From an uncultured archaeon (lineage in GTDB: Archaea; Thermoplasmatota; Penumbrarchaeia; JASLWR01): a stretch of 64,000 nucleotides of DNA. Shown piece by piece: positions 8,818-19,560 of this stretch; the first letter of the stretch is position 1; each line of letters opens with the position of its first letter. The notes below the pieces were generated by a model. The model had not been told where the DNA came from. It ran no database searches and saw only the letters and a list, made by a program, of their open reading frames with translations. The stretch lies in assembly GCA_964342815.1 (NCBI GenBank), contig CAYFHS010000008.1:1-64000 (forward strand), read 5' to 3'. The translations under genes and the position numbers were made by a program.

Positions 8818-8894
8818 TTAGAAACGAATAATTTTGTGTGATCCAGTTATATTCCTTAAGGTTCCCGTTATCCTATAAGAAAAAGGGGAAAATA

Positions 8895-10619
8895 ATGCTG
8901 AAGTTAAAAGACATTATCGGGTGGACAGTACAAAAGTACGGCACAAAGATAAGAAATCTATTAACAATAGCAAAAAAGGACATTATGGACGACGAGGAGC
9001 GAAGCAGAATAATTCACCGTTTCAAGAATATAGAAACCGAAGATATTCTTCCAGCCCTAAGTGAGACCTGGGATGAGGTGAAAGACGGAAAATACGTGAG
9101 CTATTTCAAACAGAATAGAGCACGAAAGAAGTTTATCAAGGGTTTTAAAAAGGGGGCTCACCGATTAATAAAATTGACTGCCCTCATCTTGGTATTATGG
9201 ACTCTATTTTTGCCCGGAACCCACAAGACATTCGGAATCTCCGTCTTTGCATCTTTGTTTATCCTGTGGGGCATAGAAGATCTCCTATTCATGATCTTTT
9301 CATTTAGAAAAAGCGGAAAAATGTACCGGAAGGCGGCAGATCCTCCCGATAAAGGCATTGAGGACCTTCGGGGTCGATTCAATTTCACGTATATTTTCGG
9401 GACTATAATATTTCTAACCGGTCTTTTGTCGATTTTCTTTCTCATACCTCCTCTCTCGACTCCTCTTGATATGCAGGTGGAACATGGTAAGTACTCCTGG
9501 CCGATAATATACATATTTGTGATCGTTCTATGGTTGATTGCCGTAAAAGCCGTAACAAATGCCTTCAAATACAGTCATTCCCTGGGTAGAAGAATTGCTC
9601 TTTTAAAGCATGATCGAGGAATTATGAAGCGTTTAAAACAGGAAAAAGAACTCAATAAATACGGGAGGGTGCTGACAAAATATATTTACCTTCCAGTAAT
9701 ACTTGCAGCCGTATTCGTTATAATCAGTGTAGGATTCAAATACTTCTATGCGGTTCTCATGAATTCGCTGAAGGAAGATAATTTCACCATGATGGACTCC
9801 CTGGGTACCGGTCTTAGCAACCTTATATCAGGGGGGAAAACAGCAACATTACCCCAATGGATGCCGCGAGTAAAGGGTGCATGGCTCGTTCTTTTTCAGT
9901 TATCATGTATCGTGATGGTGGGAATGGGAACGTATATGCGCAATAGAAAGATCAATTCGGTCCTTCATCCCAACACTCCGCAATCACCAGCGGGGAAAAA
10001 GGTAAAAATGCTGCTTGAAGATCTGACATTCATAAAAAAGAAGAAAAGGAAACGCAGCAAGTGGGCTAACTCAGATCAACCAATACCGAAAGAAGGTGAG
10101 AAAGTGGAAAAAAGAGGGAAGGGATTATACATAGGCAGATTTCAACCCTTTCACAACGGCCATTACAAAGTCATAGGGGAGATTATCGATGACCTGGAAT
10201 ACCTGATCATCGGGGTCGGATCTGCAAAAGAAAGTTACACGGCAAAGAACCCATTCACCTGTGGGGAGAGAGTTTTAATGATAAGAAACTCACTGAAACC
10301 TTCATGGCGAGAAAAGTGTATAATCATACCGATTGACGATATCAACAGGTACAATGTGTGGGTGTCTCACGTTGAGGATCTTACCCCACCATTTGATCTC
10401 GTCGTTGGAAATTCTGCTCTAACAGCTCTTCTATTCTCGGATAAGGGATATTATATAAAAAATCCGAAAGAATATTCCCGCGAGAAGTATAAAGGAGAGG
10501 TAATTCGTAATAAGATGCGTAAGGGGAATGAATGGAGAGAATCAGTGCCGGAAGAAACAGCGGTAGTGATAGACGGTATAAGGGGCTTGGAACGGATAAG
10601 AAATTTAGTTGATCATTAG
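8895..10619 (+). CDS. nadM: Multi-pass membrane domain fused in frame to NMN adenylyltransferase
   Basis: C-terminal 171 aa: GLYIGRFQPFHNGH, IGVGSA...NPFTCGER, YNVWVSHV, typical of archaeal NadM; N-terminal region has several hydrophobic helices; likely ATG at 8895. Confidence 0.8.
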   Translation: MLKLKDIIGWTVQKYGTKIRNLLTIAKKDIMDDEERSRIIHRFKNIETEDILPALSETWDEVKDGKYVSYFKQNRARKKFIKGFKKGAHRLIKLTALILVLWTLFLPGTHKTFGISVFASLFILWGIEDLLFMIFSFRKSGKMYRKAADPPDKGIEDLRGRFNFTYIFGTIIFLTGLLSIFFLIPPLSTPLDMQVEHGKYSWPIIYIFVIVLWLIAVKAVTNAFKYSHSLGRRIALLKHDRGIMKRLKQEKELNKYGRVLTKYIYLPVILAAVFVIISVGFKYFYAVLMNSLKEDNFTMMDSLGTGLSNLISGGKTATLPQWMPRVKGAWLVLFQLSCIVMVGMGTYMRNRKINSVLHPNTPQSPAGKKVKMLLEDLTFIKKKKRKRSKWANSDQPIPKEGEKVEKRGKGLYIGRFQPFHNGHYKVIGEIIDDLEYLIIGVGSAKESYTAKNPFTCGERVLMIRNSLKPSWREKCIIIPIDDINRYNVWVSHVEDLTPPFDLVVGNSALTALLFSDKGYYIKNPKEYSREKYKGEVIRNKMRKGNEWRESVPEETAVVIDGIRGLERIRNLVDH

Positions 10620-11858: not shown

Positions 11859-14800
11859 TTATAAATCCCATTTATCCAGGGAAATCCTATCATTCCCCGC
11901 CGATTCACTTTCAAACTTATCATTTGAATCCGTTTTTTCCAGTATCGGCAGGTGATTTTCGGAGCTTTCATCATTCTCCCAATCAAGCGACAACTCAGTT
12001 TGCTCTTCCTCCTCAATTTCCCCTTCGTCCTCAATTCCTCCTTCGGACGATGATAACGGTTCATTCTCTACGGCCACCTCGTCCAGTAACGTAATTAAAT
12101 CATCGAACTTTTTTTCTGTCTTTCGGTCGATCTTTGTACCTCGAAAACTTTTTTTCCTTGGTTTCCGTCTCATTTCCTTCAATTTCTTAGTCTTCATGGA
12201 AAAATTTGCGGTCTCATCCTCATCACCGCTCATTGATATTTCAGATCCCATATCTGAAAATCCAGCTAAATTATTATATTCAAATTGTTCATCCATATAT
12301 TCGGACTCGGTTTCATCGATACTTTCCTCCGTTGAAACCTCAGTTTCTTCCTCATAATGGTCTGATTCACTTACAATGAACGGATTATCCATTTCATCGA
12401 GATCATCGGATACCCGGGAATGAGTGGGTTCAGCGATAATTTTTTCACTTAGATTCCCGTATAATTTATTGTAATCGGCCGCATTTTCCCTTGTCAATCC
12501 ATCCCCCAAAGAAGAATCCGGCTCAGTTTCCACAGGAACTTCATCAGATTCCACTTCACGCTTCCTCTTCTTTCTGATTACAATAATAATAATAATTGCT
12601 GGTACTAGGAGAAATACAATGGCCAATGGAATAAATAATGACATTCCTGCGCGCGAGAATATACTTGGAGGCGGTTCCACCACCACCGTGATCTTACTAA
12701 TGTCCACGTCCCCATCATCGTCAACAACCTTTAGGCTGACCTCATATTCCCCGACATCTTGAAAATTATAGCTAAGAGATTTATTCACCCGGTCAACCAC
12801 CTGACCGTTAACACTCCACTCATAATGCAAACCTTCGCTGTCGCTTACAGTGTCGGTGGACTCGGTCCCTTTAAGAACGATAGTGCCGGGATCGGCTAAA
12901 ATGATCCTGCCGTTATTAATCTCATCCGCAGTTATATTTGATACCGGGGGAACATTGACTATATTGAATCCAACCACCGCTGTATCGAATTCACCATTAT
13001 CGTCCACCACTCTCAGCATAACGCTTTTTTCTCCCCGAGTTGAATATATCTGCTCCAACACGGGTTTATCTGTCACCTGATCCATATGGAATTCCAGACC
13101 GTTATAATCGAGGTCCCATTCATAACGAAGCTCGTTCATGTCGCTTAAAGTGTCACGGGTTCCGGATGCATTCAGAATGATGAGCTGGTCCTCTTCCGCC
13201 TCTTCCACATGTGAGAGCAGTGCAATTGGCGCGACGTTTTCTACATTAACATTAATAACGGCGGTATCGAAATCATTATCATCATCGGTTAACGTAAGAG
13301 TGATATTGTAACTGCCCTGGTCTTTGAATGATATATTTGCATATTTACCGTAGACCTCTCTAACATCCTCCACACTCCACACATAATACAATGAATCGAT
13401 GTCCGAGATGGAATCCATGCAAAGGGAACCATCAAGGACATGAACCTCATCCTCGGTAAGGTTAAGCATATCATAGGGTACCACCGCAGTGGGGATAACA
13501 TTTAATATGTTTACCGTGACGCTGTCAGTGGAAGATTCATTGTTATCATCGGTGACCTTGAGAGTAGTAAAATACGAACCCCGTCGTGTATAGGTATGAT
13601 TTGTTATAATACCGGAAGCATCGGAATAATTGATGCCGTCCTCCTCATCGAAATCCCATTGATAGGTGAGCAGGCCTATATCTGACACGGTATCTGTAGA
13701 GTTTCTTCCGTCAAAATTTATTAGTTGGTCCTCGAAGCCACTCATCTCCACTCCAGCGTTGGCCACCGGTGCTATATTTTTTATGTTGACCTCCAAAGAA
13801 TCGGAGGACTGGTTTCCATCATCGTCCTTAACGTTAAGAACTACATGATATGTTTTCGAAAGGCCGGAAGGTCCATCATTCGAATAAGTGTGATTTATAT
13901 ATGACTGATTCGCCCATTGGGTTATCTCTCCATCGCCAAAGTCCCATTGGTATAGAAGATTTTCCTTGTCCCACGGTGTATCCCAACTCCCGGAACCATC
14001 GAACTGGATCAGTTCATCTTCCAAACTGAATATATTATCCCCCGCTTCCGCAACCGGGTTCACGTTCCTGACAACTACATCGAACTCGAAAGGATCGGAC
14101 TTGGCCGAATCAGTATCTATTACGGTCAAATTTACTGAAAATATCCCATCATTATCGTAAACGTGCTCCGGATTGGCCTTTGCCGAGCCCCCGCCGTCAC
14201 CGAAGTTCCACATGTAAGAAAGCATATCGCCATCGGGATCGCCGGACTGGGAACTGTCAAAACTGATAGACTCTCCAGCGGTTATCGAACCTGGTATCAC
14301 AGCTGCAGCCGTTGGAGGCCGGTTCAATATTACATACTCGCCCTTCATCTCGAAACTGCCCATCAATCCGCGGACCGGGTGAGGACCTTTGGTTGAATTA
14401 AAATGATATAATTTTCCGTTCACATCTGTCGTACCAACCAGTGCACCATCAATTCGTATCTCGGCTCCCTCCCCGTGGCCTCCGATAAAATCTTTAACCG
14501 TTATAGAAACATCATCATCATGCCCGTCCATGTCATCGTCCATTAATTCTATTATCATTTCGTAACGAAGCTGCGGATTTTTGTATTCTTTCAAAAACTC
14601 CAACCATTTGGTATTGGCCATGCTGATCTTCGAAATATAAGTCTGCGATGGCCCGTCCGTAGGAAAATAGATCATCAATCCCTTCGCACCGGAATAACTT
14701 TTTTGCCCTTCCTCGATAACCGTGGTATCGTGTTCGTTCATGAGAGCTGTCGCGGCATTTCTCAAGGGGGCGGGCAGTGAACCGTCCTGCTGGATATTGC

Positions 14801-15770
14801 GGGCAAAATCGTATAGATCTCTCGAATTGCTGTTTCCACAGTGCTGAGAGTCGGCCCGGGCATCCTTTATACTATTCTCGAAGTGGTACATATAATTAGT
14901 TAGTTTCTCGGAAAAATCATCGAGCTTCGGCATATAACTGCCATTGAGTCTCGATAGGTCTACCGCGGCCTGAGTTACCGACGAAGAATATTCATCGAGA
15001 AATGCCACAACAATGGAAGTAGCAAAATTGGCGGGAGTCATGTCCGGTGAACTTGCAAGGGCAGCCAGTGGAGTCTCGTAATCCCAACCGTCCCCCGGTT
15101 CTGTGGCTTCAGATGCTATCCCGTAATCTACATAGGGAATCAATTGATAATGGGTCTCGATAAAACCCAGAAAGCAAACGTCGAACCCAATGATATCAAG
15201 TTTCTTTCCTGCTGTGGCCTTTGCATTGTTCAATACATCATTAAGCTCCCAAAGCTCTATCTCGCCGCCCCCATTGTGTTCATCATTGCAGAAACCCTTG
15301 ATCCCCTCCTCGTCATCACTACGTCTGAAGATACCAGATCCATGGTCCCAAATGGATAAAGCGTAATGATCCGCGGGATAATTTGTGATGGCCCACTGCA
15401 AAAAGGAATCAAGGGTATCGGGGTCTGCCATGTCCGGCTCGAGGGGGATCCCCGCATCCGAGGTTGGGAAAGTATTGACGCCGTCCCTAATCACGTAGTA
15501 GAGTTCTCCATCGTTGGTACCTCTGCCGTCCCAAAGAACGACGATATTGATATTTGAATCGGACCCCACCGCCTTCATTTCAGAAAGATCGCTCTGACCG
15601 TAAGATTGGAGATTATTATCGGCGTCGAGATAAACCATAAAGGTCCACTTTTTATTTAGTCGATCAGTCATCTCCGACCGATCAGCCACTACGCTGAAGG
15701 GTTGTATTACATGTAAAATAAATAACGATACTGTAAAGAAAAAGAGCATGAATTTACGTTTCCCACTCAT
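11859..15770 (-). CDS. Membrane-anchored clostripain-family (C11) cysteine peptidase with multiple PKD domains and acidic tail
   Basis: KWTFMVYLDADNNL, WDHGSG (catalytic His), GFDVCFLG (catalytic Cys); several WDFGDG/WDFD PKD units; TM before RKKRKR. Confidence 0.9.
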   Translation of the reverse strand: MSGKRKFMLFFFTVSLFILHVIQPFSVVADRSEMTDRLNKKWTFMVYLDADNNLQSYGQSDLSEMKAVGSDSNINIVVLWDGRGTNDGELYYVIRDGVNTFPTSDAGIPLEPDMADPDTLDSFLQWAITNYPADHYALSIWDHGSGIFRRSDDEEGIKGFCNDEHNGGGEIELWELNDVLNNAKATAGKKLDIIGFDVCFLGFIETHYQLIPYVDYGIASEATEPGDGWDYETPLAALASSPDMTPANFATSIVVAFLDEYSSSVTQAAVDLSRLNGSYMPKLDDFSEKLTNYMYHFENSIKDARADSQHCGNSNSRDLYDFARNIQQDGSLPAPLRNAATALMNEHDTTVIEEGQKSYSGAKGLMIYFPTDGPSQTYISKISMANTKWLEFLKEYKNPQLRYEMIIELMDDDMDGHDDDVSITVKDFIGGHGEGAEIRIDGALVGTTDVNGKLYHFNSTKGPHPVRGLMGSFEMKGEYVILNRPPTAAAVIPGSITAGESISFDSSQSGDPDGDMLSYMWNFGDGGGSAKANPEHVYDNDGIFSVNLTVIDTDSAKSDPFEFDVVVRNVNPVAEAGDNIFSLEDELIQFDGSGSWDTPWDKENLLYQWDFGDGEITQWANQSYINHTYSNDGPSGLSKTYHVVLNVKDDDGNQSSDSLEVNIKNIAPVANAGVEMSGFEDQLINFDGRNSTDTVSDIGLLTYQWDFDEEDGINYSDASGIITNHTYTRRGSYFTTLKVTDDNNESSTDSVTVNILNVIPTAVVPYDMLNLTEDEVHVLDGSLCMDSISDIDSLYYVWSVEDVREVYGKYANISFKDQGSYNITLTLTDDDNDFDTAVINVNVENVAPIALLSHVEEAEEDQLIILNASGTRDTLSDMNELRYEWDLDYNGLEFHMDQVTDKPVLEQIYSTRGEKSVMLRVVDDNGEFDTAVVGFNIVNVPPVSNITADEINNGRIILADPGTIVLKGTESTDTVSDSEGLHYEWSVNGQVVDRVNKSLSYNFQDVGEYEVSLKVVDDDGDVDISKITVVVEPPPSIFSRAGMSLFIPLAIVFLLVPAIIIIIVIRKKRKREVESDEVPVETEPDSSLGDGLTRENAADYNKLYGNLSEKIIAEPTHSRVSDDLDEMDNPFIVSESDHYEEETEVSTEESIDETESEYMDEQFEYNNLAGFSDMGSEISMSGDEDETANFSMKTKKLKEMRRKPRKKSFRGTKIDRKTEKKFDDLITLLDEVAVENEPLSSSEGGIEDEGEIEEEEQTELSLDWENDESSENHLPILEKTDSNDKFESESAGNDRISLDKWDL

Positions 15771-15893
15771 GTAATCACAGTTCTCCAGACTGTTAATGTA
15801 ACACTTTAATGGTTTTTCTACTTTTTGTTATTTTTTTCGTACCTTTCCTATCATCCATTGAACAATTAATTTGCTTGATGATACATGTTACAT

Positions 15894-15958
15894 TAAAAGG
15901 AGTAAAATATTTATACATATCAGGGTTTAGACCTTTAAAGATTATACATGTAATAAAT
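15894..15958 (+). repeat. 65-bp exact direct repeat, copy 1 (contains TATA-like TTTATACA)
   Basis: taaaaggagtaaaatatttatacatatcagggtttagacctttaaagattatacatgtaataaat, identical to 17465-17529. Confidence 0.95.
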
Positions 15959-16050
15959 TCTACATGTTTCGTAGTAGAGTTAATATAAAATAGAAGTTAG
16001 AAAATGTATTACTCTATAACAATAAATGAAATTTCAAGTGGTGTTATGTA

Positions 16051-17364
16051 TTGAACGGAAAAGTAAATTCACGTTACCCTCCTCCAAAGTGGCACCATAG
16101 CCCGGTCAATCAGACAGCGGCCCCCATGGCACGAAGGGTACCAATGGATAAATCCGCGGTCTTTGGAATTGTAATTACGAGCATATGCTCCGTAATGTTA
16201 TTTATCGCATTATTTGCACCGTGGTTCACTGTCAAGCAACGGGACTATGACAGCTGGGGTTGGGATGAAGAAAATGATAATTACAAATGGGTGAGCTACG
16301 ACCATGATGGAGACAGCTATGGAGAAGATTCTGACGATATGAATAGATTCTTTAGAACGTATGACAGTTTGGAAAATGGCAAAATCCAAGGATTTACCGG
16401 CATTATTACGGGAATGATCCTGGGCATCGCATTGATTGTACTAGGCAATTTACATTTGTTAGGTGAACTATCGAGAAGAATTATTATGTTTTTCCGGGGA
16501 GTGACCGGAATAGCAATGCTATTACCGGCAGTTTTCCTCATGGTATGTGGATCCAAGTTCACCGGCTTAGCTATATCTATTTCAACGGGAGGAAGCAATG
16601 AAAGTAAGGAGGTCTTTTTATCCCCTGTTCCCCATGTTATGCTAATCATCGGAATAATCTTTTTCGTTTTTTCATTCATTATTATATCTCATAGTTTCAG
16701 AAATCTCTCCAAAATGAATAAGAATAAAGATTCTCAGCTCGGGATAATTACCCGACATTTTTCTGGAAAGTTCAAAAAATTTACTTTTGTACTGGTCATA
16801 TTAAGTATGTTAGCATTAGTCACCCTACCACTCTTACCCATCGTATCCGAAACTGATGACGAATATGATCGTTACCTCACTTCAGGTGTGATTTTATCAG
16901 AGGAGATAATGGATTATGTAGATTTTGCAGATTACCTCGCTTGGGTAAATATCTGCTTTTGGGTAATATTTCCTATTACACTCCTTGCCCTGTTTGCCGC
17001 TCTGTTTATGACATCGGGTTTGAACGATCTAACCGGGTATATTATAGGATTGATAACAAATTTAATTGCGATTTTCCTGCTCATTGGACTGATATTCAAG
17101 ATTTTATTTATCGTGGATGTGTATAATGGCGAAAAAGTTATGAATGGATATGGTTCAATAAGTTCTGAAGGTTTAGTGTATGGCTATAACTATCTTCCGC
17201 TAATAGTGATGATAGGTCTTATCGTGATTTGTATCCTTTATATGATCCATACGATAAAGGGTTCGGCTGCTTATTTCAGGTCACTGCCCATGCATTCAGG
17301 ATCGGTCCCAATGGACTATGACGGTCTCAGTGGCAATTATTACCATAAAAGAAAAAACCCATGA
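16051..17364 (+). CDS. Hypothetical polytopic membrane protein
   Basis: About 8-10 hydrophobic segments in a 437-aa ORF; lies between the two 65-bp repeats. Confidence 0.75.
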   Translation: MNGKVNSRYPPPKWHHSPVNQTAAPMARRVPMDKSAVFGIVITSICSVMLFIALFAPWFTVKQRDYDSWGWDEENDNYKWVSYDHDGDSYGEDSDDMNRFFRTYDSLENGKIQGFTGIITGMILGIALIVLGNLHLLGELSRRIIMFFRGVTGIAMLLPAVFLMVCGSKFTGLAISISTGGSNESKEVFLSPVPHVMLIIGIIFFVFSFIIISHSFRNLSKMNKNKDSQLGIITRHFSGKFKKFTFVLVILSMLALVTLPLLPIVSETDDEYDRYLTSGVILSEEIMDYVDFADYLAWVNICFWVIFPITLLALFAALFMTSGLNDLTGYIIGLITNLIAIFLLIGLIFKILFIVDVYNGEKVMNGYGSISSEGLVYGYNYLPLIVMIGLIVICILYMIHTIKGSAAYFRSLPMHSGSVPMDYDGLSGNYYHKRKNP

Positions 17365-17464
17365 TTTGAAAGGTTGAAGAATACTAGTTAACCGGAAAAG
17401 ATCATATTTATCAGGGCAAAGAGATAACATTTTTTCTGGTTATTTTAGACAATATTCATCTCAA

Positions 17465-17529
17465 TAAAAGGAGTAAAATATTTATACATATCAGGGTTTA
17501 GACCTTTAAAGATTATACATGTAATAAAT
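17465..17529 (+). repeat. 65-bp exact direct repeat, copy 2
   Basis: Identical to 15894-15958. Confidence 0.95.
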
Positions 17530-17642
17530 CGTAAGGGATTGGGTGAAGCCTCCAAGACAGTGTTCGAACGAATCAGGTAGGCAATTCCAATAAGAAGTAA
17601 ATTAGCAGGGGTGATAATATCGGTCCCACTGAAAAAAATGAG

Positions 17643-18383
17643 ATGAAGGGAAAAGTTACAGTAATACTGAGGGATAGAGATGGCAAGATCGTGCAAAGTG
17701 AAAAGGTAAAAAACCTGATCGTATCATCCGGAAAAATGTTAATTGCCAATCTCTTCAGGGGTGAAGAATCTCAACCGGTCAGCCATATGGCGGTGGGTAC
17801 GGGAAGAGTAAATCCCAGTTCAGGGGATGTGGCCATTCAGGAGGAAATGTCACCACGGTGTCCTTTCGATAAGAATTTTTTATCTCCCGAAAAGAGCGCA
17901 TATCTTGCTCTCAAAGACGCTGCTAAAAAAGATGTATTGATACTCACTTCAAGGATATGTGGGGAGAGGGGAAACTTCATTTCCGTGGAAGTTAAAAAAA
18001 GAAGCTCGGATAATTTCTCGCTCTACGTCTATGGAGAGACCGACGAAGAATTCGTCGAAGAGGAGTTCAAGGAGCTGTCCATGAATCCAAAGGAGAAGCG
18101 GCATGTCGAAAAGGTCGTAAATATTGAATCCCAGCTGGTGAGTGCGAAGAGTATAGTGAATTCGACCCCGACAAATTTATCCCGAACTTCGCTAGAGGAA
18201 GGACAGGATGCAATAGTAACCCTGGGAGCCACTTTCGGTTATGATGAATGCAACGGTCCCATCTCGGAAGCGGGAATATTCAATGCATCAAGGGAAGGTA
18301 CCATGTACAACCGGGTCGTATTCCCGGAGATCAACAAGACGGACAAATTGACACTTTCGCTTATTTGGAAAATATCGTTCTAG
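17643..18383 (+). CDS. Phage-tail/eCIS-like structural protein with an inserted sheath-like subdomain
   Basis: KGKVTVIL..KNLIVSSGK..SHMAVGTG..GDVAIQEE and ATFG..CNGPISEAGIFNA..GTMYNRVVFPEINKT..LSLIWKISF resemble a widespread phage virion/tail protein; central SRICGERGNFISVEV..EEFKELSMNP..HVEKVVN resembles tail-sheath subdomains. Confidence 0.6.
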   Translation: MKGKVTVILRDRDGKIVQSEKVKNLIVSSGKMLIANLFRGEESQPVSHMAVGTGRVNPSSGDVAIQEEMSPRCPFDKNFLSPEKSAYLALKDAAKKDVLILTSRICGERGNFISVEVKKRSSDNFSLYVYGETDEEFVEEEFKELSMNPKEKRHVEKVVNIESQLVSAKSIVNSTPTNLSRTSLEEGQDAIVTLGATFGYDECNGPISEAGIFNASREGTMYNRVVFPEINKTDKLTLSLIWKISF

Positions 18384-18393
18384 GAGGGAGTTT

Positions 18394-18870
18394 ATGGGTT
18401 CAAAAAAAAGACCAAAGATCGTGGTGTCGGACGGCAAACAAGCAAAGAAGATAGAGGTGATCCCCGCAAAGGGAAAAGGAGAGAAAAAACTTGGCCTGGT
18501 CAGATCGGATTTTGAGCCGAGATTGAAGAGCCCGGGTGATCTCATACAGGCTGAAGAATGGAATGATATTCAGGAAGAAATTAAGGATGATCTGATGAAT
18601 CTAAATAACGGAATCGAGCTTTTGAGCAAAAAATCCTCCACAATGATAGCATCCGGGATAGCTTCGCACGGGGTCTTCGTGGAACTTGACTGGGAGGTAC
18701 AGCCCCACGTTATTCTTTCACCCAGCGGAACAGTGGACGAGGTTGAGGATAATATGAATTTGATATGTTATCCCCACGATATATCATCCAGTGGTTTCCG
18801 GGTATTTGCGCAGTCAAGGGATGGAAAGGTAAGCGGAATCGTCAATTGGATCGCTTTTGGAGTAACTTAG
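18394..18870 (+). CDS. Putative short tail-fibre-like protein
   Basis: PGDLIQAEEWNDIQ motif and C-terminal beta domain ending ISSSGFRVF..VNWIAFG, like tail-fibre tip/H-type-lectin-like domains; SD GGGAG. Confidence 0.5.
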   Translation: MGSKKRPKIVVSDGKQAKKIEVIPAKGKGEKKLGLVRSDFEPRLKSPGDLIQAEEWNDIQEEIKDDLMNLNNGIELLSKKSSTMIASGIASHGVFVELDWEVQPHVILSPSGTVDEVEDNMNLICYPHDISSSGFRVFAQSRDGKVSGIVNWIAFGVT

Positions 18871-18882
18871 CGGGGTGATAAA

Positions 18883-19449
18883 GTGATAATTTTTTATAAT
18901 ACAAGAGCCAGAAACATCACAGGTGTCTCCATGATAATGAACGACACCTCCAAAAAACTGAAGGAGCCTACATATAATAGTTCATTTCCCAAGAGCCCTC
19001 CTCCGGACATTGGCTATTATTTCACACCGAACGATGCAACTATCGCAAACGAGCTGTGGGCTTACCAGCTTATTTTTAATAAAAGAGGGAAACCGAAATC
19101 GGTTGAGAGAAAACCGCCCAAGCCCTTCATTCATCTATCCACAAACGCCCAGGATAAGGACGGAAACGGAATTCCGGAAATTATTGCGGACGGGAAACAG
19201 CAGTGCAACATAACGGCAAGTGTAAGGGACCACAACGGAAGCCTTCTGACTTATTTCGGGGAACCTGTAACTTTTAAAACCACGGGAGGAGTTCTTTTCG
19301 ACCGGGATGTAAAGTGCAAGAACGGTGTTGCTAAGACCACACTCCGGTCGGTAGAGGAGACCCTGACCCCAACTATAACTGCCACCGCTCCGGGCTGTAT
19401 TTCCGGAGAGATGGAGATAGAGTTCGTGTTGGAGACGGTTTTTAAATGA
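18883..19449 (+). CDS. Ig-like (Big-1/invasin-type) domain protein
   Basis: IIADGKQQCNITASVRD..PVTFKTTGG..NGVAKTTLRS..TITATA; GTG start after GGGGTGAT. Confidence 0.6.
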   Translation: MIIFYNTRARNITGVSMIMNDTSKKLKEPTYNSSFPKSPPPDIGYYFTPNDATIANELWAYQLIFNKRGKPKSVERKPPKPFIHLSTNAQDKDGNGIPEIIADGKQQCNITASVRDHNGSLLTYFGEPVTFKTTGGVLFDRDVKCKNGVAKTTLRSVEETLTPTITATAPGCISGEMEIEFVLETVFK

Positions 19450-19560
19450 AATCATCCCGTAAAAAGTTGTAAATTATTGTCACAATTCTTTGCTGGACTA
19501 CTCTTTTCTGAAATATTCAGGTGGAATAGGTTGAGTTCGCGGTCTTGGAGTGGATTGCTC

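Follow-up and report, generated by a model that had tools for sequence, protein, structure and literature searches.

The fibre modules of P2 (gpI-gpH-gpG), Mu (gp48-gp49-gp50) and pyocin R2 (PA0619-PA0620-PA0621) serve as references for the locus described here. Fibres of extracellular contractile injection systems (eCIS) combine N-terminal baseplate-anchor domains (eBAP1-5) with swappable C-terminal binding domains and include mini-fibres and SLL-2-like lectin tips; H-lectin/SLL-2-like, immunoglobulin (Ig)-like and Invasin_D3 domains are among those listed in a catalogue that is drawn from fibres inside eCIS operons (Nat Commun 2026, PMC12923769). In archaea, the contractile injection system (CIS) of Halogeometricum borinquense is encoded by one conserved cluster, cis1-16, on plasmid or chromosome, and a subset of the haloarchaeal CIS works in the membrane-anchored mode of a type VI secretion system (T6SS) (Sci Adv 2024, PMC11566945). 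Here we analyse three adjacent genes, A, B and C, of an uncultured archaeon (Thermoplasmatota; Penumbrarchaeia; JASLWR01), which are located within a stretch of 64,000 nucleotides (contig CAYFHS010000008.1 of assembly GCA_964342815.1, positions 1 to 64,000 of the forward strand; hereafter the window). The evidence makes it likely that they form the distal target-recognition module of a contractile injection machine of the CIS or tailocin type, the genes of which are spread over the chromosome. In the full-text literature on contractile injection and Thermoplasmatota, judged by titles, no such system was found.

According to the open reading frame (ORF) list of the window, three intact, co-oriented genes on the + strand fill positions 17643-19449. 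The gaps between them amount to 10 nt (A-B) and 12 nt (B-C), and Shine-Dalgarno (SD) sites are located ahead of B (GGAGGGAG) and C (GGGGTGAT), in agreement with an earlier note on this DNA, which had described three tightly spaced co-oriented genes with SD sites before the second and third. The genes and the domains assigned to their products are as follows:

17643-18383, + strand: gene A, 246 aa, ATG start; putative baseplate-proximal fibre adaptor with a core (residues 1-80 and 190-246) that is a β-sandwich of the tail-collar-fibre/phage baseplate-periphery type
17886-18212, + strand: inserted domain of A (residues ~82-190), apparently copied from a contractile tail sheath, to the protruding domain of which it corresponds
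18394-18870, + strand: gene B, 158 aa, ATG start; putative short fibre/receptor-binding protein with a Lys-rich disordered stretch (1-33), anchor motif (F40...PGDLIQAEEWN57), long helix (53-80) and knob (82-158)
18637-18867, + strand: C-terminal knob of B (residues 82-158), predicted H-type-lectin-like fold as in tail-fibre/tailspike tips
18883-19449, + strand: gene C, 188 aa, GTG start; putative Ig-like accessory protein, with Big_1/Invasin_D3 at residues 99-182

To place these genes in context, species-representative genomes were scanned for A. The scan yielded 68 A loci, six of them archaeal and encoding a long form of A, and about 60 bacterial and encoding a short form. The bacterial carriers belong to Bacteroidota, Chloroflexota, Cyanobacteriota, Accumulibacter and other Pseudomonadota, Acidobacteriota and further groups. 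In their genomes the short A directly follows the contractile-tail baseplate set gp25-Baseplate_J-gpI at the distal end of the cluster, which answers the question, raised in the earlier note, whether homologues normally sit at the end of such loci. The gene order in a Bacteroidota locus (L024) is GPD-type hub, gpV spike, gp25/sheath initiator, Baseplate_J, gpI-like protein, A, B-like protein and Big_1 C, and the same order is found in two further loci (L010 and L020). The B-like protein of L024 (162 aa) begins with MPFNHVPKNPGDLIKSEDWN and contains the motif PGDLIKSEDWN. In at least 43 of the 61 bacterial loci the ORF right after A opens with an xPGDLIxSxDWN motif, with lengths ranging from 121 to 1026 aa. 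A constant N-terminal motif with a variable remainder is the classic tail-fibre pattern, in which the attachment end is fixed and the binding end can be swapped, and the B-like proteins thus show the conserved attachment and variable binding regions expected of fibres.

Genes similar to C follow in at least eight bacterial loci, where they encode full-length orthologues (29-37% identity over residues 1-182). Sheath and tube genes, with which the bacterial clusters begin, are located 16-22 kb upstream of A; the clusters lie between housekeeping genes and contain no capsid gene. The cluster of G003 resembles Mu/P2 in its gene order from the sheath to A, B and C, with a chaperone-like gene, a DNA_circ_N-like gene and genes for long coiled-coil proteins between tube and hub, followed by spike, gp25, J and I. 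Since it is flanked by housekeeping genes (phosphoglycerate mutase and dehydrogenase) and contains no head genes, it represents a tail-only cluster.

The position downstream of the wedge is true of the bacterial orthologues but not of this archaeon and its archaeal relatives: the wedge genes map to another contig (C1), and none were detected within 8-10 kb of A in any archaeal A locus. The source genome is a metagenome-assembled genome (MAG) of 4.35 Mb in 116 contigs (88.9% complete, 3.2% contamination), the window being its contig C8. A profile search of this genome gave no match on the trio's contig to the sheath, T4-gp19-type tube, Baseplate_J, gp25 and spike families, and Pfam scans of the large ORFs of the window revealed no capsid, terminase, integrase, portal or head genes. 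This agrees with the earlier note, according to which the window lacks tube, full sheath, baseplate, spike, capsid and integrase genes. The matches of the own genome to these tail families all fall on contigs C1, C10 and C52. Using profiles built from the bacterial clusters, each of which finds one place in this genome, we located the following parts:

C10: sheath, 476 aa, PF04984 and PF17482, alone (profile E 1e-26)
C1: gp25 (143 aa), Baseplate_J (499 aa) and gpI-like protein (381 aa) (profile E 3e-35, 4e-92 and 4e-48, respectively)
C52: spike, 406 aa, Phage_base_V and DUF2345, with a PAAR protein of 101 aa (spike profile E 1e-39)
C14: hub (profile E 6e-29)
C8: the A/B/C trio (profile E 4e-41, 0.004 and 6.7e-32, respectively)
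C36: DNA_circ_N-like tube initiator (profile E 6e-10; hhalign 98%)
C1, away from the wedge: chaperone-like protein (profile E 6e-5; hhalign 91%)

All these parts are single-copy and without fragments. The Pfam families Sheath_initiator, Baseplate_J, Phage_base_V, PAAR, Phage_sheath_1 and Phage_sheath_1C are found in the genome, and the gp25, J, gpI-like and spike proteins of the archaeon hit counterparts in syntenic positions of the bacterial clusters that carry A (30-48% identity). Genes for sheath, baseplate J, gp25, hub, spike and PAAR are thus all present elsewhere in the genome, where the earlier note had suggested looking for such genes, and with sheath, wedge, hub and spike the genome has what is expected if the trio is the fibre module of a contractile machine. 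Two more proteins, of 1051 and 164 aa, are encoded beside the DNA_circ_N-like gene on C36; the smaller one is a tube candidate.

The spike of this genus (G000, C52:2220-3437; L085:2217-3437, minus strand) includes in its 406 aa a C-terminal DUF2345/hemagglutinin-repeat-like extension. The spikes of other genera match only its first 126-180 residues and are encoded by ORFs of 230-251 aa in four of five cases and of 546 aa in G009. The additional part may lengthen the needle or represent a fused effector.

We then compared the occurrence of the parts in 37 genomes of the class; as related genomes are not independent, the result is read as a pattern and not as a statistic. A is present in seven genomes (G000, G006-G009, G013, G014), and the spike in the same seven. 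Sheath and Baseplate_J occur in these seven and additionally in G011 and G015, the hub is found in seven genomes, six of which carry A, and the tube candidate in four of the carrier genomes. None of the remaining 28 genomes contains A, spike, sheath, J, hub or the tube candidate. The G007 assembly, which has 40 contigs, places A, J, sheath, hub and spike on five of them, with more than 20 kb between each gene and the contig end. In at least three to five families the trio and the remaining modules are preserved intact, with 49-91% identity. This phyletic co-occurrence favours a module that acts in trans over a domesticated stand-alone appendage. Together with the scattered orthologous parts, it supports the suggestion of the earlier note that the trio works in trans with a contractile system whose genes lie elsewhere.

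The isolated trio is kept in at least six other archaeal genomes and in several metagenome contigs. The closest relative of A, with 87% identity, is found in ETNP2_MAG_1. The flanking genes vary by lineage (Alba/LSM/EndoIII; NurA-HerA-Mre11-Rad50; VIT1), indicating that the trio is a unit that was moved or kept independently. G009 shows partial clustering and amplification of the system: a tube-candidate gene follows two to three sheath copies in tandem (C59:3931-10609), and at least four more tube-candidate copies are located on other contigs. One contig labelled [Eubacterium] cellulosolvens (locus L009; GCA_975970955.1, CDLUMC010000109.1) carries the long archaeal A-B-C beside Mre11/Rad50-type genes. 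A near-identical locus, L011, has NurA-HerA-Mre11-Rad50, and the L009 contig, despite its bacterial label, is probably archaeal.

While Pfam gave nothing meaningful for A, comparison with PHROGs yielded a match in two halves to phrog_5417, a profile of 156 positions (E 1.2e-20), a match to the tail-fibre family phrog_4176 (E 3.7e-5) and, for the middle segment, a weak match to the tail-sheath family phrog_279 (E 3.3e-4). Structure comparisons (VIA-align) were based on an AlphaFold2 (AF2) model of A with a predicted local distance difference test (pLDDT) score of 95.3. The core aligns best with a tail chain of HFTV1 (9h4p_BD, residues 387-507; Z 11.7, 119 aligned, root-mean-square deviation (rmsd) 1.9), and also with a baseplate chain of phi812 (9euf_b, Z 8.5) and with 8jou_a (Z 8.0), whose entry title names fiber I and the fiber-tail-adaptor of phage GP4. 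The insert matches the sheath of the H. borinquense CIS (9ezm_A, residues 88-208; Z 14.7, 104 aligned, rmsd 2.6) and the sheaths of phiCD508 (Z 12.2) and of DSY3957, P1 and T4 gp18 (Z 8-11); the resemblance to the sheath protrusion is further supported by Foldseek (E 4.6e-6). A tail-attachment-like first gene, as proposed earlier, is in good agreement with these data: the core is a tail/baseplate β-sandwich and the insert a contractile-sheath protrusion domain.

At the sequence level the insert is related to residues 87-179 of the sheath of its own genome (31% identity over 98 aa, E 6e-10) and shows no similarity to the sheath of the bacterial cluster. An alignment of 32 homologues separates two forms of A, one of ~240-280 aa with the middle segment and one of ~160 aa without it. 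The insert is missing from all bacterial short forms, and the insert-bearing forms are found on one side of a branch with a Shimodaira-Hasegawa-like approximate likelihood ratio test (SH-aLRT) value of 98 in a quick maximum-likelihood tree, which is compatible with a single insertion event. The insert therefore appears to be a domain copied from the sheath within one machine, with one origin in the archaeal lineage. A itself is not a truncated sheath. This possibility is ruled out, as the protein contains the protrusion-like domain alone, has no Pfam sheath match (PF04984/PF17482), and the true sheath is encoded on C10.

The core of A keeps the invariant core residues of the short bacterial forms found in contractile clusters. 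A relation to tail fibres may be reflected in matches to the tail (collar) fibre families phrog_4176/4618/1780 (E 1e-4 to 6e-3) and, among 26 short forms, in weak matches to PF12571 (phage tail-collar fibre N-terminal; three forms, best E 0.0019) and PF23140 (GP4 fibre I gp80; two forms, best E 0.0089). A profile of the short forms found nothing among PDB sequences, and sequence searches of solved structures with A and B remained at chance level (prolyl hydroxylase E 0.31; chorismate synthase E 0.005). In a collection of phage genomes, three partial C-terminal matches to A were obtained, which cover 20-27% of the protein and stem from Achromobacter phages and a sewage phage.

A may start at ATC 17619 instead of ATG 17643 (region 17601-17645). 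This ATC is preceded by the SD site GGGGTGAT and a 3-nt spacer, an arrangement identical to that at the GTG of C and also present upstream of A in the congener. The additional eight residues (IGPTEKNE) would match the conserved N-terminus, xE(K/R)xx, of homologues with a normal start codon.

The motif PGDLIQAEEWN comprises residues 47-57 of B and is invariant or nearly so in an alignment of the archaeal B family, which is tiny (14 clusters in 1.84 billion representatives). B has no Pfam match at E values up to 1. In its AF2 model (pLDDT 75 overall, >90 in the knob) the knob is a β-sandwich, which aligns with discoidin I (Z 7.8), the C-terminus of LKA1 gp49 (7.7), the R2 pyocin fibre tip 6cu2 (7.6), SLL-2 (7.5) and Helix pomatia agglutinin (HPA, 7.0) using VIA-align. 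Foldseek gives a probability of 1.00 for SLL-2, HPA and discoidin with E values between 3e-3 and 5e-2, and the knob also matches the C-terminal tips of R1/R2 pyocin fibres, AP22 gp53, LKA1 gp49 and phi297 gp61. The two independent structure searches give one common set. The scores are moderate, and the argument for an H-type-lectin-like fold of the knob rests on the consistency of the match list. The motif described for the second gene is recovered in this way, the fibre-tip/lectin-like C-terminus that had been proposed for it agrees with this list, and tail folds were returned by the structure searches for the A core, the A insert and the B tip. A complex model of three copies of A with three copies of B residues 34-95 gave a score of 0.00 (mark 0.32), which counts neither for nor against binding. 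A 1745-aa protein of the representative library (P0078) contains 16 stretches matching B residues ~35-131 and resembles a giant B-like repeat protein.

In C, residues 99-182 match Invasin_D3 with 40.6 bits (cut-off 33) and Big_1 with 34.4 bits, just under the cut-off of 34.9 (Pfam), consistent with the Big-1-like Ig protein that had been predicted. No known family was matched by residues 1-98. Full-length orthologues of C follow B in all archaeal loci (48-84% identity), and the genome contains no paralogues of A, B or C. All three genes are under strong purifying selection: compared with the congener, the ratio of nonsynonymous to synonymous substitution rates (dN/dS) is 0.087 for A, 0.105 for B and 0.070 for C, at dS ~0.9-1.2.

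Upstream of the trio, two further features are located:

17462-17529, + strand: copy 2 of a 68-nt repeat with a putative promoter, ~114 nt upstream of A, with an A/T-rich TATA-like stretch (ATATTTATACATA)
15891-17461, + strand: lineage-specific segment outside the module, with repeat copy 1 and a membrane protein gene (16051-17364)

The direct repeat (15891-15958/17462-17529) is identical in 67 of 68 nt, and no such match occurred in 100 shuffles. No further copy of the repeat or of its parts is present anywhere in the genome, including the upstream regions of the other modules, which by eye share no obvious motif. In the congener (L013) a single orthologous copy lies upstream of A, and a clostripain-PKD gene directly adjoins A. 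In the alignment, window positions 12517-15947 correspond to L013 1-3424 and positions 17466-19474 to L013 3373-5369; the segment between them is missing in L013. The 1.57-kb segment is thus lineage-specific, since L013 has one repeat copy and no membrane gene, and by this alignment it is an insertion or duplication that would have copied the putative promoter region. No transposase was seen near it. The gene within the segment encodes P0004, a multi-pass membrane protein of 437 aa that has no Pfam or PHROGs family match and no homologue in any related trio locus. P0004 is ruled out as a component of the system, as its gene lies inside the repeat-bracketed segment and is missing from the congener and all relatives. 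Of the co-regulation with the upstream membrane protein through a duplicated promoter, as suggested in the earlier note, the repeat itself is real, but the co-regulation is not conserved: L013 has one copy and lacks the gene, and no relative has it beside the trio.

The neighbouring genes in the window are archaeal (Hef helicase-nuclease, class I LysRS, CCA-adding enzyme), and Pfam scans of the large ORFs show that the window is rich in PKD/CARDB/Kelch surface-protein genes. A 593-aa ORF at 8838-10619 has a cytidylyltransferase-like (NMN adenylyltransferase-type) domain confined to residues 430-504; in one relative (L006) a stand-alone CTP_transf_like gene of 174 aa is located at a comparable position upstream of the trio.

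Several observations weigh against a dispersed contractile machine that includes the trio. The tube families PF06841 (T4-gp19-type) and PF09393 (XkdM-type) are unmatched in the own genome, although with a MAG that is 89% complete and divergent proteins this is not evidence of absence. The 164-aa tube candidate on C36 is weakly identified (phrog_365 E 7e-4, hhalign P 0.009); it gains support as it adjoins the initiator and has a homologue 2.6 kb downstream of the sheath genes in G009. Tape-measure homology was not found, and the hhalign comparison of the 1051-aa C36 protein with the long proteins of the bacterial clusters was blank. The assignment of contigs to a MAG rests on binning; an artefact is argued against by the recurrence of the same gene set in six other MAGs. 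Sheath and J are present in G011 and G015, but A and spike are not detectable there; the fibres are either dispensable or diverged in these genomes, or were missed in MAGs that are 89% and 85% complete. All structural matches of B have Z values below 8, and at such values resemblance often arises by chance. Finally, no common promoter motif ties the trio to the other machine loci, and the 68-nt element is unique to the window.

Such observations have to be considered together with other possible roles of the trio. It might be a domesticated stand-alone surface adhesin of tail-fibre descent, for example a lectin-tipped envelope appendage, that works independently of the other tail-like genes. 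A promoter region of its own and the location among PKD/CARDB/Kelch surface genes would suit an adhesin, as would the lack of a shared regulatory motif and the two genomes with sheath and J but no detectable A, where the parts are evidently separable. However, the translations of A, B and C contain no evident signal peptide or membrane anchor, although no formal prediction was made, and the identical distributions of A and spike over the 37 genomes, the invariant core residues that A shares with bacterial forms from contractile clusters, and an insert copied from the sheath of the same system all argue for a connection with the machine. An independent adhesin is clearly improbable on this evidence. 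Dispersal is also the expected product of genome decay, and the tail genes could be the remnant of a prophage or tailocin cluster that was broken by rearrangement and is no longer jointly functional; capsid, integrase and terminase genes are indeed missing nearby, and tube and tape measure are hard to detect. We consider this very improbable in view of three intact ORFs with dN/dS of 0.07-0.10, of modules that stay intact across families and of parts that are without exception single-copy and unfragmented. For the trio itself, selection and conservation are the grounds on which a prophage remnant is rejected.

Very improbable, finally, is a viral role, in which a tailed archaeal virus would be decorated with fibres encoded by the host or a provirus. 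The fold nearest to the A core does come from an HFTV1 tail protein domain (Z 11.7) and PHROG families were matched, but head, portal, terminase and integrase genes are missing from the window, the phage collection gave only the three partial matches described above, and housekeeping flanks that differ between genera misfit a mobile provirus. We therefore favour a target-recognition module that belongs to a dispersed contractile machine.

For this module the homology and synteny of A suggest that it would sit as an adaptor on the periphery of the baseplate wedge, and an additional surface domain, copied from the sheath protrusion, would have been acquired in the archaeal lineage. Judging from the motif pattern, B may be anchored by its N-terminal PGDLIxAxxWN peptide, either to A or to the wedge. 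It is probably trimeric, like the solved relatives found in the fold comparisons, with a coiled-coil helix as stalk and a lectin-like knob that could bind a glycan on the target surface. C may be an Ig-like accessory serving as fibre decoration, second adhesin or assembly factor. Expressed from a putative promoter of their own, the three proteins would assemble in trans with gp25-J-I (C1), hub (C14), spike-PAAR (C52), sheath (C10) and the tube candidate with its initiator (C36). The presence of a fibre module suggests that the machine recognizes an external target, in the manner of eCIS and tailocins, and does not work in a T6SS-like mode that is purely cell-anchored.

One may go further and propose that the machine is fully split into seven or more loci, each transcribed independently, and has been functional in this state since before several families diverged, and that the sheath-derived domain of A docks on the outer surface of the sheath, coupling fibre engagement to contraction by a contact present in no described CIS, tailocin or phage. 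In this complete form we regard the proposal as rather unlikely.

The carriers are uncultured marine Thermoplasmatota from oxygen-minimum zones and anoxic basins. A fibre module decides the target of its machine, and a mini-fibre of 158 aa with a predicted lectin tip and a separate adaptor would constitute a compact, swappable recognition unit. CIS are catalogued via gene clusters. A lineage with dispersed modules would escape such pipelines, and archaeal CIS may therefore be under-counted.

Compared with known systems, the module resembles those of P2, Mu and the R-type pyocins in that its bacterial relatives directly follow the gp25-J-I wedge genes, in a fibre whose N-terminal attachment part is conserved and whose receptor-binding C-terminus varies, and in the small accessory gene after the fibre. 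The predicted tip fold of the B knob resembles that of R1/R2 pyocin fibres. In contrast to these modules, the attachment domain (A) and the fibre (B, with only 158 aa) are encoded by separate genes, the third gene encodes an Ig-like Big_1 protein and not a gpG/Tfa-type chaperone, A has a sheath-derived insertion, and the archaeal module is physically apart from every other tail gene. With eCIS fibres it shares the principle of a short conserved N-terminal anchor and a swappable tip. An Afp/PVC-type operon, however, is not present, the parts being distributed over C1, C8, C10, C14, C36 and C52, and there is no Afp/PVC-type tube match (PF06841). The CIS of H. borinquense is likewise an archaeal contractile system, and the protrusion of its sheath (structure 9ezm) is the best match of the A insert; the Thermoplasmatota genes differ from it in being spread over at least seven loci and in including a fibre module. 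Orphan vgrG-PAAR-effector islands of T6SS provide a precedent for machine parts that are encoded apart and supplied in trans. In T6SS, however, the structural core remains clustered and scattering is confined to spike/effector modules, whereas sheath, hub, wedge, tube module, spike and fibres of the archaeon are all separate. The trio is unusual in three ways: it is unlinked from a wholly dispersed machine, its fibre is divided between two proteins, an adaptor and a mini-fibre, and the adaptor carries a sheath-derived insert.

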